Positions 23,022-28,348 of a stretch of 64,000 nucleotides of DNA are shown in pieces. Within the stretch, counting starts at the first letter, position 1; each line of letters begins with the position of its first letter. Source of the stretch: an uncultured Rhodobacteraceae bacterium. GTDB lineage: Bacteria > Pseudomonadota > Alphaproteobacteria > Rhodobacterales > Rhodobacteraceae. A model generated the notes under the pieces. The model was given only the letters and a program-made list of their open reading frames with translations, did no database searches and was not told where the DNA came from. The stretch is taken from NCBI GenBank assembly GCA_947489445.1, contig CANLDN010000008.1, positions 14,614 through 78,613 on the forward strand, in the 5' to 3' direction. The position numbers and the translations under genes were made by a program.

Positions 23022-23747
23022 ATGAGTGATACCGGGAAGACGACCTATAAACGGGTCATGCTCAAGATTTCAGGCGAGGCGCTGATGGGCGATACCTCTT
23101 TCGGGCTGCATCCGCCGACGGTGCAGCGGGTGGCTGCCGAGGTGAAGACGGTTCACGACATGGGCGTTGAGATCTGCATGGTGATCGGCGGCGGCAACAT
23201 CTTTCGCGGGTTGCAGGGCTCTGCCCAAGGGATGGAGCGGACGACGGCGGATTACATGGGGATGCTGGCCACGGTGATGAATGCGCTGGCCATGCAGTCC
23301 GCGTTGGAGGAGTTGGGTATTCACACGCGGGTGATTTCAGCGATTACGATGAACGAGGTGGCCGAACCCTATATTCGCCGCCGCGCTGTGCGTCACCTTG
23401 AAAAGAAACGGGTTTGCATTTTTGCAGCCGGGACGGGGAACCCCTATTTTACCACGGATACGGCAGCGACATTGCGCGCCAATGAGATGGCTTGCGAGGC
23501 GATTTTCAAGGGCACTAAGGTGGATGGCGTGTATGACAAGGACCCCGCCAAGCATGCTGATGCGGTCCGCTATGACAATGTGACTTATGATGAGGTGCTG
23601 CAAAAGCATCTGGGTGTGATGGATGCGTCGGCCATTGCGCTGGCGCGCGACAATGATTTGCCGATCATCGTGTTTTCATTGGATGAACCGGGCGGGTTCC
23701 GGGGCATTCTGGCGGGCGAGGGGACCTATACGATTGTCAAAGACTGA
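23022..23747 (+). CDS. pyrH: UMP kinase
   Basis: [33 protein letters not shown] and DGVYDKDP motifs. Confidence 0.98.
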
Positions 23748-24744
23748 CCCGAAAGAAAATATCGGGCGCGGTTGGGCTGTCACGGGTTTTGCCATTGGTC
23801 TGTTGGGTTTGGTCGCAGCGGTCGCATTCGTCTGGATCGAAACGGCGCGGATTGACCGGACCGTTGTTGGGTTAATGCAGACCGAGCAGGAGTTGCGGGC
23901 CAGCTATGCGGCGCTGCAGGCGGAGTATTCGGATACGCTGCGCGCGTTGGACAATGCAAATCGCGCGATGTCGGATGCCTCAACCGCATTTGCGGCGGAG
24001 GTGGACGGTACCCGTGATGCGGATCAGTTGGTGGCCCGCATGACGGCATGGTCGGTTTTGACGTCAGGGACCGCAGGTGATCTGGGAAAATCGGCGGCGT
24101 TTGAATATCTGGCGGATCAGGGCGAGGCGTTTCAGCATCTTGATCTGTCCTGCCCGGCGTTCGGCGCAGATGAGACCCGTTGTCTGGCACCGGTTCGCAT
24201 TGATCGCCTGCGTCTGAGTGATGCCTATTTGGATCATATCGACTTTCGTCATGCGCAGTTTGTGCTTTTGATGATGACAGGCGGGACCCTGAACGATGCG
24301 TCGATGGACTATAGCTTGTTCCGGTCGATCCGCCTGAACGAAACACGGGTGTTGGATGTGATGGCCCGAGGTGCCAGGTGGTATGATGTTGATGTGACTG
24401 GTGGTACGATACAACGTTCGGACTTTACCGGCGCCCGGATGGGCAGCGGTCGCTGGTCGGATGTGCGTATCTCTGACACTGTTTTTGATAATGCGCTGGT
24501 CGAATATGTGCAGTTTGATGATGTGCGGTTCAGTGGGGTTTCGTTTCGCGGTGCTGGCCTGTCGGGCACCCGGTTCGAAAATATGCGCGGGTTTGAGGAT
24601 GTCGATCTGACTGATGTCTGGGCATGGAGCGATCAGATGCCGGTGGGTATTGATCCCGATTTGGTTGCGCAATGCGTATTTCCGGCCGATCGTATTGAAG
24701 GCAGTTCGCCTGTACGTGGTGAACGCCGCCCGGCGGATTGTTGA
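23734..24744 (+). CDS. Membrane-anchored pentapeptide-repeat protein
   Basis: N-terminal TM helix ([18 protein letters not shown]), coiled-coil-like segment, then ~25 degenerate pentapeptide units. TTG start at 23734 chosen from the upstream GAGGGGA SD; it overlaps the pyrH stop. Confidence 0.75.
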
Positions 24745-24765
24745 GCAATGGGCGCGTGGACCGCG

Positions 24766-25260
24766 CTAGTTGTTGGTTTCGATATTCGCGCGTATGACCG
24801 GTTCGAGGTAGATAAAATCGTCCGGCGCGCCTGTAAAATTGCTTAAGGTCAGCCGGTTGTTCGAAAAATGGCTGAGCTGATAGCGCTCTAGAATGTTGTC
24901 GGGGAGTGCGCGGTCTTGGGGATCGACAATGCGCCAAGGGCCATCGCAGCGCTGCTTGGCATCTCGATATTCGCCCCGAAAGATACCCGGATCGTCTGCG
25001 TTATCGCGGCATATCTTGGCCCAGCCGAACCAGTCAATTCCGCCAATCTGAATGAAATCATCCGGTATCGGCTTGTTCCAGGTCAATGCGACCGCAGTGA
25101 TATCTTCCGGAAATGCGTCGAAATCTGTGGTGATCGTTGTGGCGCATCCGTCAATCATGGGAATGGCTGTGTGTTGGGTGCTGGGTCGGAGTGCCAAAAC
25201 AGCCGCAAGAGTAACACATGCGGTCGCGACAATAGCAATTATGCGCCCTTTCGGTGTCAT
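24766..25260 (-). CDS. Membrane-anchored hypothetical protein, candidate immunity protein 2 (paralogue of 25297-25782)
   Basis: N-terminal hydrophobic helix; shares DF..F.EDI.A....W..PIP.....IGG.D..G.A with the upstream gene; last gene of the putative effector operon. Confidence 0.7.
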   Translation of the reverse strand: MTPKGRIIAIVATACVTLAAVLALRPSTQHTAIPMIDGCATTITTDFDAFPEDITAVALTWNKPIPDDFIQIGGIDWFGWAKICRDNADDPGIFRGEYRDAKQRCDGPWRIVDPQDRALPDNILERYQLSHFSNNRLTLSNFTGAPDDFIYLEPVIRANIETNN

Positions 25261-25296
25261 CTGTCATACGACACAGTTTGATAAGTCATGGCAACG

Positions 25297-25782
25297 CTAC
25301 GGCGCGTATTCTATGTTTTGAGGCTGTGTCGGTACAAGATAGAACCAATCGCGTGGCGGGGTTGTTGTATCTTGACCGACGAGGAGTTGCTCATTTTCAA
25401 TGTAGGATATGACATAGTTACCGGCTTTTATATCGGGCAGCGGGTTGTCTGATGGATGTTCATATCGAAGAGGTCCGATGTAGCGAACGCGACTGTTCAG
25501 AAAATGCCCTTGGAAGATATTCGGTGGATCGTCGTCATTGCGCCAGGCCAATGCATAGCCGATTTCATCCACCCCACCAATGAGGTGAAGTTCAGGGGGG
25601 ATGGGTGCCGACCATGCCTGTTCAATCGCAGCGATATCCTCATCAAAGGGCACGAAATCAGCCATTTCTTCTGACGACTTGAGGAATGTTTCGGGCATCG
25701 TGCTCTCCTTTTTGAAGAAAACAAAAAAAACTGCCACGACCAGCGCGGCTGCACCGGCAAGAATGACTTGCTTACCGGACAT
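25297..25782 (-). CDS. Membrane-anchored hypothetical protein, candidate immunity protein 1
   Basis: MSGKQVILAGAAALVVAVFFVFF anchor; ATG overlaps the stop of the effector-like gene by 11 nt. Confidence 0.7.
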   Translation of the reverse strand: MSGKQVILAGAAALVVAVFFVFFKKESTMPETFLKSSEEMADFVPFDEDIAAIEQAWSAPIPPELHLIGGVDEIGYALAWRNDDDPPNIFQGHFLNSRVRYIGPLRYEHPSDNPLPDIKAGNYVISYIENEQLLVGQDTTTPPRDWFYLVPTQPQNIEYAP

Positions 25783-26602
25783 AAAGACCTGCCGGGAATG
25801 CAAAGCCGCTTGCGACTGTCCCCGAAGACGACACGGTCAGCGCGCGGTAAGTTGTTTGAAGCTGGATGATTTGGCGCGCAGGAACTTCAATTGCGGTGCC
25901 AGCGGGGGCATCCATCGTCCCGCCAACAATCGTTCGCAGGATAATATCCAAATCGGGTGCGGCAGAGACATTGCCGTTGACGCCTGATTGGGACGCGACC
26001 TCCAATGCGAAGGTGAAGCAGTGATTGCCGCTGACATCATACGCCGCTGCTGTGCGCGCAGCGACGGCGGCTTTGCGTGTTTCGGCGAATGCTTTCATTG
26101 TATCGAATGAACCGTTGGGCACTTTGACATATACGGCATTGAAATCGTACGGCCCGCCATTCGTGCGTGTCAAAGCCTGCATCAACGCGGCCCACGGCCC
26201 AGCATTGGGGTTGTCATCTTGATCGAATGTCATTGTCACGCTAGCCGGACCGGCGACACTGCGCACCGCGCCAAAATTCCCGCCATAGCGCCCATATTCG
26301 TAGTAAGCGACTTCACCGGTTAATCCGTTGTAAAAAGCGACACCGGCGTGACCCAGCCCAAGCACCCGTACCCCGGACGCATTGGAACTGCCGATTGATA
26401 ATGGTGGATTCGAGCGCGGTTGCGTGAAGGTTTCACGTACTGAGCGTTCTTCGTCGATGGCGGCCCGTTCCAGCAAGCTCATTTCCCCACGGATCGCATC
26501 GTATGGGATTGTGATTGGCTGATTGGGATAAACAATCGGGATCACGGCGTCACATGGTCCCGGGCAGCGGGCGACGGGATCGTCTGGTGCGTCATCCTGC
26601 AT
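25772..26602 (-). CDS. Putative papain/permuted NlpC-P60-fold toxin (TseH-like T6SS effector candidate)
   Basis: VIPIVYP, LGHAGV (His85), YYEYGRY (Glu102) and YD..GNHCFTFA (Cys195); lies directly after a DUF4123-like gene (TAATG overlap) and before two immunity-like genes. Confidence 0.65.
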   Translation of the reverse strand: MQDDAPDDPVARCPGPCDAVIPIVYPNQPITIPYDAIRGEMSLLERAAIDEERSVRETFTQPRSNPPLSIGSSNASGVRVLGLGHAGVAFYNGLTGEVAYYEYGRYGGNFGAVRSVAGPASVTMTFDQDDNPNAGPWAALMQALTRTNGGPYDFNAVYVKVPNGSFDTMKAFAETRKAAVAARTAAAYDVSGNHCFTFALEVASQSGVNGNVSAAPDLDIILRTIVGGTMDAPAGTAIEVPARQIIQLQTTYRALTVSSSGTVASGFAFPAGLYVR

Positions 26603-27567
26603 TACGATGATACATCCTTGCTGAGTTCATTTTTCAATCTCATGGCCCGTACCAAATCTGGTGCACCTTCGCTTTCGTCGAGTGCCTTCACCACGCGCGT
26701 GTCAGTCAATCCTGCGGGCAAAGGCGCCACACAGTCAATAACCATACCGATTGCCTCGCGCGACCGCAGGGGGATCCCCAAGACAGCTTGGTAAAGTGCG
26801 GCGGCCTGTTCTTTGCCCAATTGATGGTCTTGTGTGAGATGGGTAATCATATCACGTCGAAATCGCGCTTCAGTCACATGCGAAAGTGCCCGGAAAATCT
26901 CCGCGCTGAGGGTGATCTGCAACGGGGCAGGTGGCCCGGAGGAGGTGTTGTCCAGCGACAGGCGCTGGCAGGTATCGCCAAGTGTGATGAATGCGTTCAC
27001 CATCCCGTTTCCGAAAAATGCCTGCCGTTGTGTTCCGGTCATCGCCATAAGATAGGCGGTCACGAAATCGGTTTCCCAAAACCGAAAGAAGAACCATTTG
27101 CCGCTGGTATCTTTGATCCTTGTAAAATGTCTTAGATGTTTGACAACGGTCCCGAGATCCTCCGCGCTATGTAGAAAGAACCCGGCTTTCGGCCAGAACG
27201 CCGTCAGTACGTTTGCGTCGGTGATGAGACCCTTTGAAAGATCGTTGGTTCCATCGAGTGCTACGATCCAAGGCCCATTTTCGCTCAATTCATCGCGTGC
27301 TTTTCCTTGGAACAGGCTTTGATGGGCCATACGGCTATTTGCAAGTATCTCGGGCAGATGTGTTATGATTGCGCCGTCAAGAACCGCATAGGTGTTTATC
27401 CCGTTTGGTACGTCAAACAGCACGGACCATAGATGTGTTTGCGTTGCGTCCTGATCATCTGAGCAGGGATGCGCATCCTTTATCGTGTCAATCAAAAGCT
27501 GCGGCGTTTGATCAATACCGATTTCCAAATCCGGCGCTGAAGCAGTCATTATATTGCTATCACTCAA
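26602..27567 (-). CDS. DUF4123-domain protein (T6SS effector chaperone/adaptor family)
   Basis: YAVLDGA, SLFQG.A.DEL...GPWIV.L, W...GFFLHS...L..V.KHLRHF and GKWFFFRFWE match the DUF4123 signature as recalled. TTG start is uncertain (alternative ATG 27549). Confidence 0.8.
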   Translation of the reverse strand: MSDSNIMTASAPDLEIGIDQTPQLLIDTIKDAHPCSDDQDATQTHLWSVLFDVPNGINTYAVLDGAIITHLPEILANSRMAHQSLFQGKARDELSENGPWIVALDGTNDLSKGLITDANVLTAFWPKAGFFLHSAEDLGTVVKHLRHFTRIKDTSGKWFFFRFWETDFVTAYLMAMTGTQRQAFFGNGMVNAFITLGDTCQRLSLDNTSSGPPAPLQITLSAEIFRALSHVTEARFRRDMITHLTQDHQLGKEQAAALYQAVLGIPLRSREAIGMVIDCVAPLPAGLTDTRVVKALDESEGAPDLVRAMRLKNELSKDVSS

Positions 27568-27784
27568 CTTTCCCTGTCACGTTAGGCAGTCTGGTGGGGC
27601 CTGTCAAAGGTTGCTCAGCTTTGGGTCAGATTTGTGCGGAACGTTCTGTTTTGTATCGGCAGGCGGCATTGCGGGCTAATGAAAAAATGCGAAAATGCTC
27701 TGGATATCTCGACCTATACAATAGTCAGCTATTCCCGTAAAACGATGAAAAGCCGGGCAAAGCCCGTGAAGTGGAAGAGCAGAA

Positions 27785-28348
27785 ATGTCAGACGAATTTG
27801 AACTTGATACCGATGATCTGTCCCGCCGAATGGATGGGGCAATTGCCAATTTGCGCACGGAACTTGCGTCATTGCGCACTGGTCGCGCATCCGGGTCCAT
27901 GCTCGAACCTGTCATGGTGGATGCCTATGGATCGATGACCCCGATCAACCAAGTGGGGACCGTGAACGTGCCAGAGCCGCGCATGGTGACGATCAATGTC
28001 TGGGATAAGGGCCTTGTCGGCAAGGTCGAAAAAGCCATTCGCGAAAGCGGGTTGGGGATCAATCCGCAGCTGAACGGTACGATCATCATGCTGCCCATTC
28101 CTGAACTGAACGAAGAGCGGCGCCGCGATCTGACAAAGGTGGCCGGTCAATATGCCGAAAGTGCCCGGGTTTCGATCCGAAATTTGCGCAAGGACGGTAT
28201 GGATCAGATCAAGAAAGCCAAGGCGGATGGCATGTCGGAGGATGACCAGAAGTTCTGGGAAACCGAAGTGCAGGAGTTGACTGACGCCCACATCAAGACA
28301 GTTGATGATACGCTTGAAACCAAGCAGGCCGAGATCATGCAGGTCTGA
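27785..28348 (+). CDS. frr: Ribosome recycling factor
   Basis: [28 protein letters not shown] and ARVSIRNLR motifs. Confidence 0.98.

Follow-up and report, generated by a model that had tools for sequence, protein, structure and literature searches.

A probable orphan T6SS cargo module, comprising a DUF4123 adaptor, a TseH-like hydrolase and two candidate immunity proteins, in the pyrH-frr spacer of an uncultured Rhodobacteraceae bacterium

DUF4123 proteins are known only as adaptors for the VgrG tails of T6SSs, in which the adaptor binds a motif at the C-terminus of VgrG with its N-lobe and the effector with its C-lobe (PMC11582642). In the auxiliary VgrG-Tap(DUF4123)-effector-immunity modules, exemplified by Vibrio cholerae Tap-1/TseL (PMC4557670) and the Pseudomonas aeruginosa Tap proteins (PMC11582642), the adaptor gene immediately precedes its cargo gene, to which it is translationally coupled, with the immunity genes downstream. 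A survey of DUF4123 gene neighbourhoods distinguished five classes of cargo, Rhs, Tle, alpha/beta hydrolase, MIX and MATE, with no TseH class among them (PMC11582642). TseH of V. cholerae (VCA0285; PDB 6v98), which has no signal peptide and is followed by its immunity gene (TsiH, VCA0286), relies for recruitment on the C-terminal tail of PAAR2 (bioRxiv 10.1101/2021.05.11.443660). TseH is reported to poison Aeromonas dhakensis and to leave E. coli unharmed (PMC12542774).

The locus described here combines elements of both systems. The window, by which we mean the whole 64,000-nucleotide stretch analysed (C8:14614-78613), carries a minus-strand operon of four co-directional ORFs at 27567-24766, corresponding to 39.4-42.2 kb of contig C8. 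The features of the operon (the cassette) and its surroundings are as follows, in window positions.

26602-27567, minus strand: DUF4123 (Tap/TEC-type) T6SS adaptor, 321 aa, PF13503.
25772-26602, minus strand: TseH-like papain/NlpC-P60-type cysteine hydrolase effector, 276 aa, PF25218.
25297-25782, minus strand: candidate immunity protein 1, 161 aa from ATG 25782 (alternative 25297-25803, 168 aa).
24766-25260, minus strand: candidate immunity protein 2, 164 aa, paralogue of immunity 1.
23748-27700, no strand: insert of ~3.95 kb between pyrH and frr, holding the cassette and a pentapeptide-repeat gene; right edge approximate.
23734-24744, plus strand: pentapeptide-repeat protein with an N-terminal TM helix, PF00805 at 30.9 bits, also PF13599 and PF13576.
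23022-23747, plus strand: pyrH (UMP kinase) from its ORF translation, bounding the insert on the left, 77-84% identical at the DNA level to same-genus relatives.
27785-28348, plus strand: frr (ribosome recycling factor) from its ORF translation, bounding the insert on the right, its product 92-94% identical in aa sequence to the Frr of relatives.

The four-gene arrangement given in the initial annotation holds, and both of its overlaps can be read directly in the sequence: a TAATG stop/start overlap at 26602 couples the adaptor and effector genes, and the effector and immunity 1 genes share 11 nt at 25772-25782. Genes 3 and 4 are spaced by 36 nt. Whole-genome searches also placed no vgrG, PAAR, hcp, tssB/C/K/M or second DUF4123 gene inside the window, as had been noted for vgrG, PAAR, hcp and tss genes from the 64 kb itself. 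The cassette resembles the Tap modules in having its adaptor directly upstream of, and coupled to, the cargo with immunity genes downstream, and differs from them in being detached from vgrG and PAAR and in carrying a TseH-like hydrolase, a cargo outside the five surveyed classes.

The first gene does encode a DUF4123 protein. It matched PF13503 at 87.1 bits against a cut-off of 25.8, over residues 60-183 and profile positions 2-119 of 119. As in the Tap proteins, the DUF4123 domain forms the N-lobe of the adaptor. Searches against NCBIfam gave a weak, sub-threshold match of the adaptor to the Tla1 chaperone and nothing for the other three proteins of the cassette. The adaptor starts at TTG 27567, with ATG 27549 as an alternative start. 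The genome encodes six DUF4123 genes, of which this is one.

The second gene had been read as a His/Glu/Cys enzyme of TseH type, and profile, fold and residue conservation all agree. The protein matched PF25218 at 65.5 bits (cut-off 27; residues 20-206), and phmmer aligned it to PDB 6v98 with an E value of 7.8e-6, bringing the LGHAGV..YYEYGRY and NHC(F/M)TF motifs, and with them H85 and C195, into register. Its AF2 model (pLDDT 87.9) found TseH 6v98 as the sole PDB match in Foldseek (E 1.5e-9, TMt 0.84), and H85, E102 and C195 are invariant across 16 effector homologues. Identity to TseH in the structural alignment is ~18%, and the cassette effector extends ~70 C-terminal residues past the TseH core. 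Like TseH, it lacks a signal peptide in its ORF translation and is followed by an immunity gene, here by two instead of one. It is single-copy in the genome. No adjoining PAAR with a C-terminal tail is present as a loader; what lies upstream instead, as in most homologues, is a DUF4123 gene. This absence bears on the route of loading and not on the catalytic family.

Genes 3 and 4 encode two paralogous proteins with hydrophobic N-terminal segments, which agrees with the membrane-anchored pair first described. They share 34% identity (tblastn E ~1e-19 to 1e-20; blastp E ~1e-24 to 1e-25). The AF2 model of immunity 1 (pLDDT 91.9) has a helix at residues 3-23, predicted to be transmembrane, followed by a mostly-beta domain. 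The charges flanking this helix are ambiguous; in an alignment of the family all 17 members have an N-terminal hydrophobic anchor, preceded in most by positive charges, and from these homologues we infer a periplasmic topology for immunity 1. Such a topology, together with the position immediately downstream of the effector gene and conservation with it, is consistent with immunity proteins targeted to the compartment in which the toxin would act. This small family comprises 54 representative clusters among 1.84 billion proteins, and Foldseek, Pfam and PDB profile searches returned no significant relative.

The same triad of genes recurs elsewhere. A DUF4123 gene lies directly upstream of the effector homologue in 13 of 15 genome loci, and an immunity homologue lies directly downstream in all 15 as well as on three metagenome contigs; a second, divergent locus in Jannaschia marina shares this layout. 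The upstream DUF4123 gene is absent at L032, which has a homologous effector, and at L057, where the effector is divergent, so the adaptor is not obligatory across the whole effector family. In a Nitrincola T6SS cluster the order is Hcp-VgrG-PAAR-DUF4123-TseH-like-immunity, and in a Sedimenticolaceae MAG it is VgrG-PAAR-DUF4123-TseH-like-immunity. The triad of Nitrincola lacisaponensis (JMSZ01000015.1; L018) shares 50% identity with the cassette in the effector, ~31% in the immunity protein and ~25% in the adaptor. It comes straight after ClpV, Hcp, VgrG and PAAR, with a VasX_N effector next in line, whereas the cassette triad is an orphan and the VasX_N effector of this genome lies beside the VgrG on contig C1. 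The initial annotation had suggested that pairing a TseH-type effector with a DUF4123 adaptor might be undescribed. We found no paper describing the pairing in the searchable literature; in public genomes, however, it is the rule for this subfamily, canonical VgrG-PAAR-DUF4123-TseH-like loci included. The pairing follows known adaptor logic.

The genome-wide search for tssB/C, vgrG, PAAR and eCIS genes located a single cluster of T6SS core genes, on contig C10 (TssA, B, C, E, F, G, K, M, Hcp, ClpV and Fha), and an eCIS-like cluster at 136-152 kb of C8, ~95 kb from the cassette. The T6SS core refutes the suggestion that the genome might lack a T6SS. The genome also encodes three full VgrG spikes, on C1, C4 and C5. 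Only the one on C1 has a linked PAAR and DUF4123 gene, and only this one carries the tail ...GITLEA..L.G.VSMGGSG..QV..L..AAN..LP..EEC, which is common to the Nitrincola and Sedimenticolaceae VgrGs encoded directly upstream of PAAR-DUF4123-TseH-like modules. A tblastn search with this tail found no second copy in the genome, and a small ORF bearing a VgrG docking tail inside the orphan module was rejected on the same result. Because it is the only VgrG with the tail seen upstream of homologous modules, and the only one linked to a DUF4123 gene, the C1 VgrG is likely the carrier, judging from sequence. If it is, six adaptors would compete for one tail. The T6SS, the three VgrGs and the matching C1 tail together support the original proposal of a detached cassette that is loaded in trans, on a spike from another locus.

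The cassette lies in an insert between two housekeeping genes. Homology to relatives ends at the pyrH stop codon and restarts ~100 nt before frr, and in eight of ten same-genus genomes the pyrH-frr gap is only ~77-203 nt, representing the empty site; the insert was found in none of the same-genus genomes searched. The effector was missing from all 40 other genomes searched, 24 of them from the same genus, and was found in 7 of 401 genomes of the order. GC3 is 0.51-0.59 in the four cassette genes, 0.63 in the pentapeptide-repeat gene and 0.62-0.72 in the flanking genes. The rarity or absence of the effector in relatives, the empty site and the GC3 of the cassette below that of flanking genes argue for horizontal acquisition. 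The pentapeptide-repeat gene is convergent with the cassette inside the same insert; no such gene lies beside the module in any of the other homologous loci.

Neither an integrase nor a tRNA was found at the insert. Both edges carry an imperfect direct repeat of 17 nt, but relatives already have part of its right copy as ancestral sequence; site-specific integration was rejected on these grounds. Unrelated inserts occupy the pyrH-frr spacer in ~40% of genera for which both coordinates are listed. The Jannaschia pohangensis copy of the module, in which the adaptor is split, sits at the same pyrH-frr site, and a general variable spot accounts for this shared location better than a dedicated mechanism.

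We consider it very probable that the cassette is an orphan T6SS cargo module acquired horizontally into the variable pyrH-frr spot. In the mechanism we propose, the DUF4123 adaptor would bind the TseH-like hydrolase in the producer cytoplasm through its variable C-terminal lobe, and its conserved N-terminal lobe would attach the complex to the tail at the C-terminus of a VgrG, most likely that encoded at C1:915793-917868 and capped by the neighbouring PAAR. The single T6SS on C10 would then fire the loaded spike into neighbouring Gram-negative cells, where, once in the periplasm, the His85/Cys195 enzyme would attack the cell wall, presumably its peptidoglycan. With inner-membrane anchors and periplasmic domains, the two downstream proteins may each bind and block toxin arriving from sister cells, the second copy serving as a back-up or as orphan immunity against related TseH-like variants.

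Other explanations of the locus account for parts of the evidence. One of them would make the cassette cargo of the eCIS-like contractile injection system of this contig, whose genes at C8:144-151 kb specify a sheath, gp19-type tubes, a CIS_tube protein, a 592-aa spike and a PAAR; we regard this as highly improbable, since DUF4123 adaptors are known only from T6SS VgrG tails (PMC11582642), the homologous modules reside in T6SS or VgrG loci, the eCIS spike has no C1-type tail, and the cassette is neither within nor next to the eCIS cluster. It is about as hard to credit that the hydrolase is a housekeeping enzyme of cell-wall remodelling that has two membrane-bound proteins as its regulators and no part in interbacterial killing. 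Enzymes of NlpC/P60 type are common as autolysins and the gene does sit among housekeeping genes, but the protein lacks a signal peptide, has a DUF4123 partner, is encoded in none of the same-genus genomes searched and in so few of the order, and has homologues inside VgrG loci. A decaying or silent remnant, in which only the immunity genes matter, as protection against TseH-like attack by neighbours, is unlikely, if less so than either of these: detachment from any spike gene, the split adaptor in the Jannaschia pohangensis copy and the presence of two immunity genes for one toxin would fit, whereas the four ORFs are intact and translationally coupled, the catalytic residues have been kept, the adaptor has the score of a full-length DUF4123 protein, and the genome retains a T6SS and a matching VgrG tail.

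Within the reading of the cassette as a T6SS cargo module, one copy may neutralise the resident toxin while immunity 2 is non-redundant, an orphan immunity against non-self TseH-like variants, and we give this somewhat less than an even chance. At 34% identity the two copies have diverged as far as the immunity proteins of different genera, and the immunity tree does not support them as sisters, on which basis a recent duplication was rejected. In none of the other 17 loci, genomic and metagenomic, was a second copy seen. Immunity 2, which is 39% identical to its Jannaschia pohangensis homologue, keeps the Cys pair found in most aligned family members, and immunity 1 has lost it. An old tandem duplication followed by fast divergence would fit equally well, however, in a tree with 10 weak branches among its 14 inner ones. 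The presence of multiple immunity-type genes after a single effector also recalls the orphan immunity arrays of T6SS auxiliary clusters; in contrast to these, the cassette has only two, full-length copies and no effector remnants in between.

A bolder interpretation would make the pairing of DUF4123 with a TseH-like hydrolase a sixth, undescribed DUF4123 class of marine Rhodobacterales and some Gammaproteobacteria, in which the conserved ~70-residue C-terminal extension of the effector docks the adaptor in place of the PAAR2-tail route, the immunity proteins form a new fold family, one VgrG tail serves six adaptors, and immunity 2 is an orphan defence against foreign TseH-like variants. We offer this combination tentatively, as one that is, taken as a whole, less likely than not.

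The cassette is a real but fairly ordinary bacterial weapon module, and it leaves the current picture of T6SS effector loading unchanged. With it, the known cargo of DUF4123 adaptors would gain a class of cell-wall hydrolases, and a single catalytic family, TseH, would have two loaders to the T6SS spike, one a PAAR tail and the other a DUF4123 adaptor. Its immunity candidates define a small family, so far uncharacterised, whose confidently predicted fold has no match among solved structures. TssC is present in 12 of 41 genomes of the genus, and for roseobacter ecology the cassette would be one of six adaptor modules arming a patchily distributed T6SS.

The four co-directional minus-strand genes are a real orphan T6SS adaptor-effector-immunity module, rightly read as such in the initial annotation, whose observations (gene direction, both overlaps and a paralogous last pair) all match the ORFs and the sequence. 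The window occupies C8:14614-78613 of a 4.65 Mb genome in 29 contigs, and the cassette and its convergent neighbor are laid out as follows.

26602-27567, minus strand: gene 1, adaptor, ORF of 321 aa
25772-26602, minus strand: gene 2, effector, ORF of 276 aa
25297-25782, minus strand: gene 3, immunity candidate, ORF of 161 aa from ATG or 168 aa from an upstream TTG
24766-25260, minus strand: gene 4, immunity candidate, ORF of 164 aa
23734-24744, plus strand: pentapeptide-repeat gene with an N-terminal TM helix, its TTG start overlapping the pyrH end by 14 nt

Read in the sequence, genes 1 and 2 share a TAATG stop/start overlap, genes 2 and 3 overlap by 11 nt, and gene 4 is preceded by a 36-nt spacer. 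At 34% identity, genes 3 and 4 are paralogues of each other; a search of the genome found no further copy of either.

The initial annotation had called gene 1 DUF4123-like and proposed a profile search, which returned the Pfam DUF4123 family at 87.1 bits (cut-off 25.8); NCBIfam added nothing more than a sub-threshold Tla1-chaperone match. Its description of gene 2 as a TseH-type His/Glu/Cys enzyme is borne out at several levels. In Pfam, gene 2 scores 65.5 bits against TseH (PF25218; cut-off 27), and it matches the sequence of the T6SS effector TseH structure 6v98 with an E value of 7.8e-6, the motifs LGHAGV...YYEYGRY and NHC(F/M)TF lining up in that alignment. Across 16 aligned homologues (43-68% identical), H85, E102-Y-G-R-Y and N193-H-C195 are invariant, and a confident AlphaFold2 model built on that alignment (pLDDT 87.9) has 6v98 as its sole significant match in the PDB (E 1.5e-9, probability 1.00, target-normalised TM 0.84). 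Past the Pfam/TseH core lie approximately 70 C-terminal residues (207-276) that are conserved across the subfamily and confidently folded in the model.

Periplasmic T6SS immunity proteins are typically recognized by where the gene lies, by being conserved together with the effector and by being targeted to the envelope; on these three features genes 3 and 4 carry the standard signature and are immunity candidates. The gene following the effector is a gene 3/4 homologue in every related locus examined (15 genome loci and three metagenome contigs). Family members share pairwise identities of 30-40%; all 17 aligned members have an N-terminal hydrophobic segment, which in most is preceded by positive charges, and a Cys pair is common to most of them. 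In the AF2 model of gene 3 (pLDDT 91.9), residues 3-23 form a helix and a seven-strand domain comes after it, a fold without significant match in the PDB. Genes 3 and 4 themselves had no Pfam matches, no sequence relatives of the family were found in Pfam or the PDB, and the family is small, with 54 representative clusters in a set of 1.84 billion proteins. None of the other loci examined has a second immunity-type copy. The two copies may stem from an old duplication, or the second may have been recruited as an orphan immunity gene; a tree, itself largely unresolved, gave no support for genes 3 and 4 as sisters.

The initial annotation had seen no vgrG, PAAR, hcp or tss gene in the window, and whole-genome searches placed all of them elsewhere in the genome and none inside it, so the cassette is detached. 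The alternative that the genome lacks a T6SS falls away, with core genes on contig C10 and three VgrGs present; the proposed search for tss, vgrG, PAAR and eCIS genes recovered all four types outside the window. Contig C10 carries TssK and a 1210-aa TssM together with ClpV, TssG, TssF, TssE, Hcp, TssB, TssA and an FHA protein, and TssC is present as a single copy in the genome. Between the TssK/M and ClpV/TssB-C parts lie a caspase-domain protein (529 aa) and an M23 peptidase (772 aa) at C10:117853-121773. Within the genus T6SS is patchy (TssC in 12 of 41 genomes). The genome has several PAAR proteins and three full-length VgrGs, each of which has its own loader.

Contig C1: VgrG-PAAR-DUF4123-VasX_N effector
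Contig C4: VgrG-DUF2169-...-PAAR-like/GHH2 nuclease
Contig C5: VgrG-DcrB(Eag)-prePAAR Rhs-Imm44

Six DUF4123 genes were found, five of them, including gene 1, orphans. The four other orphan modules are at C2:436042-438480, C14:61248-63225, C9:72083-75327 and C12:95502-97706; their cargo (418, 249, 629 and 254/244 aa) had no significant Pfam match, the best being a sub-threshold 18.6 bits to DUF6782, and may be less characterized toxins than the TseH-like one.

Triads homologous to the cassette's point to a likely carrier. Nitrincola lacisaponensis has one in the order ClpV...Hcp-VgrG-PAAR-DUF4123-TseH-like-immunity-VasX_N, and a Sedimenticolaceae genome has VgrG-PAAR-DUF4123-TseH-like-immunity. 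The C-terminal tail of the C1 VgrG (...GITLEAASINLKGNVSMGGSGGAQVPTLQGAANAGLPLVEEC...) is clearly similar to the tails of both these VgrGs and occurs once in its own genome; the C4 and C5 VgrGs diverge past the gp5-like domain. In DUF4123 adaptors the N-lobe attaches to a motif at the C terminus of the cognate VgrG, and effector binding falls to the variable C-lobe (PMC11582642). From tail likeness, the single occurrence of the tail and this division of lobes, we infer that the gene 1 adaptor would dock the gene 2 hydrolase onto the C1 VgrG, and we regard the chances that this VgrG is their specific spike as evenly balanced. The cassette probably has a single docking spike.

The same contig, C8, also carries an eCIS-like contractile injection cluster, approximately 95 kb from the cassette and outside the window, of which the cassette is very unlikely to be cargo.

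C8:136000-152000: 731-aa sheath with a cadherin-like insert, two gp19-type tube genes, CIS_tube protein, 592-aa spike and PAAR

Nothing found links either DUF4123 or the cassette to this cluster, whose large ORFs (1302, 732, 309 and 270 aa) had no Pfam match. With its four ORFs intact and coupled and its catalytic residues conserved, the cassette is unlikely to be a silent remnant, and gene 2 is unlikely to be a housekeeping autolysin because it has no signal peptide, has an adaptor and is sporadically distributed.

The insert between pyrH and frr, the cassette plus the pentapeptide-repeat gene, is approximately 3.95 kb. Homology to relatives stops at the pyrH stop codon, and pyrH and frr lie approximately 77-203 nt apart in eight of ten same-genus genomes, the other two having an unrelated conserved membrane-protein gene (215/216 aa) there. 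The effector was absent from 40 other genomes searched (24 same-genus), and the pentapeptide-repeat gene adjoins the module in none of the other loci examined. GC3 is lower in the cassette genes (0.51-0.59) than in the flanking genes (0.62-0.72), with the pentapeptide gene at 0.63. Jannaschia pohangensis has a homologous triad at the same site, its effector only 51% identical; its DUF4123 adaptor (locus L020, 5084-6001) is broken into two ORFs of 120 and 181 aa, either a frameshift/pseudogene or a sequencing error. Unrelated inserts of 1-2.2 kb occur in six of the 15 genera with both coordinates listed. Across the family the spacer (seen in relatives L026, L027 and L064-L069) is variable in general, and a dedicated integration mechanism need not be invoked. 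The insert edges carry an imperfect 17-nt direct repeat (15/17 identical), at 23723-23739 in the pyrH 3' end and at 27711-27727, where the sequence again becomes homologous to that of relatives. Because relatives with an empty site have part of the right copy, the repeat may reflect chance or microhomology.

Few members of the order have the TseH family (7 of 401 genomes, 6 of 138 genera). Among the 15 genome loci that encode a close homologue of the effector, DUF4123 lies immediately upstream in 13. It was not detected in L038, a 4-kb contig with a 5'-truncated effector match. In a gammaproteobacterial MAG (L032, 5644-6762) the effector has no adaptor gene but an N-terminal extension of approximately 100 residues, which may be an alternative loading domain; this gene lies downstream of MbnB/TglH-type RiPP genes. 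A second, divergent locus in Jannaschia marina encodes a 230-aa TseH-like protein with DUF4123 upstream. In another genome (G098; L057, 1441-3404) a 202-aa TseH-family gene without upstream DUF4123 adjoins a TniQ-domain gene, a hint that a Tn7-like element may carry it.

The initial annotation had taken TseH-type effectors to be described with a PAAR partner, and V. cholerae TseH has indeed been described as using the PAAR2 C-terminal tail for loading (bioRxiv 10.1101/2021.05.11.443660), whereas the cassette's effector has a DUF4123 gene upstream instead. For Salmonella, TseH-like candidates that lack DUF4123 have been reported (PMC10469887), and a systematic survey of DUF4123 neighborhoods has only Rhs, Tle, alpha/beta-hydrolase, MIX and MATE (PMC11582642). 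We found no paper describing a DUF4123-TseH pair, and with that class missing from the survey the suggestion that the pairing may be undescribed was fair; the pairing is nevertheless expected from the general adaptor rule and evident from current Pfam annotation. The points of interest are modest: a TseH-type enzyme with a DUF4123 loading route, two copies from an uncharacterized immunity family, and probably just one docking spike.
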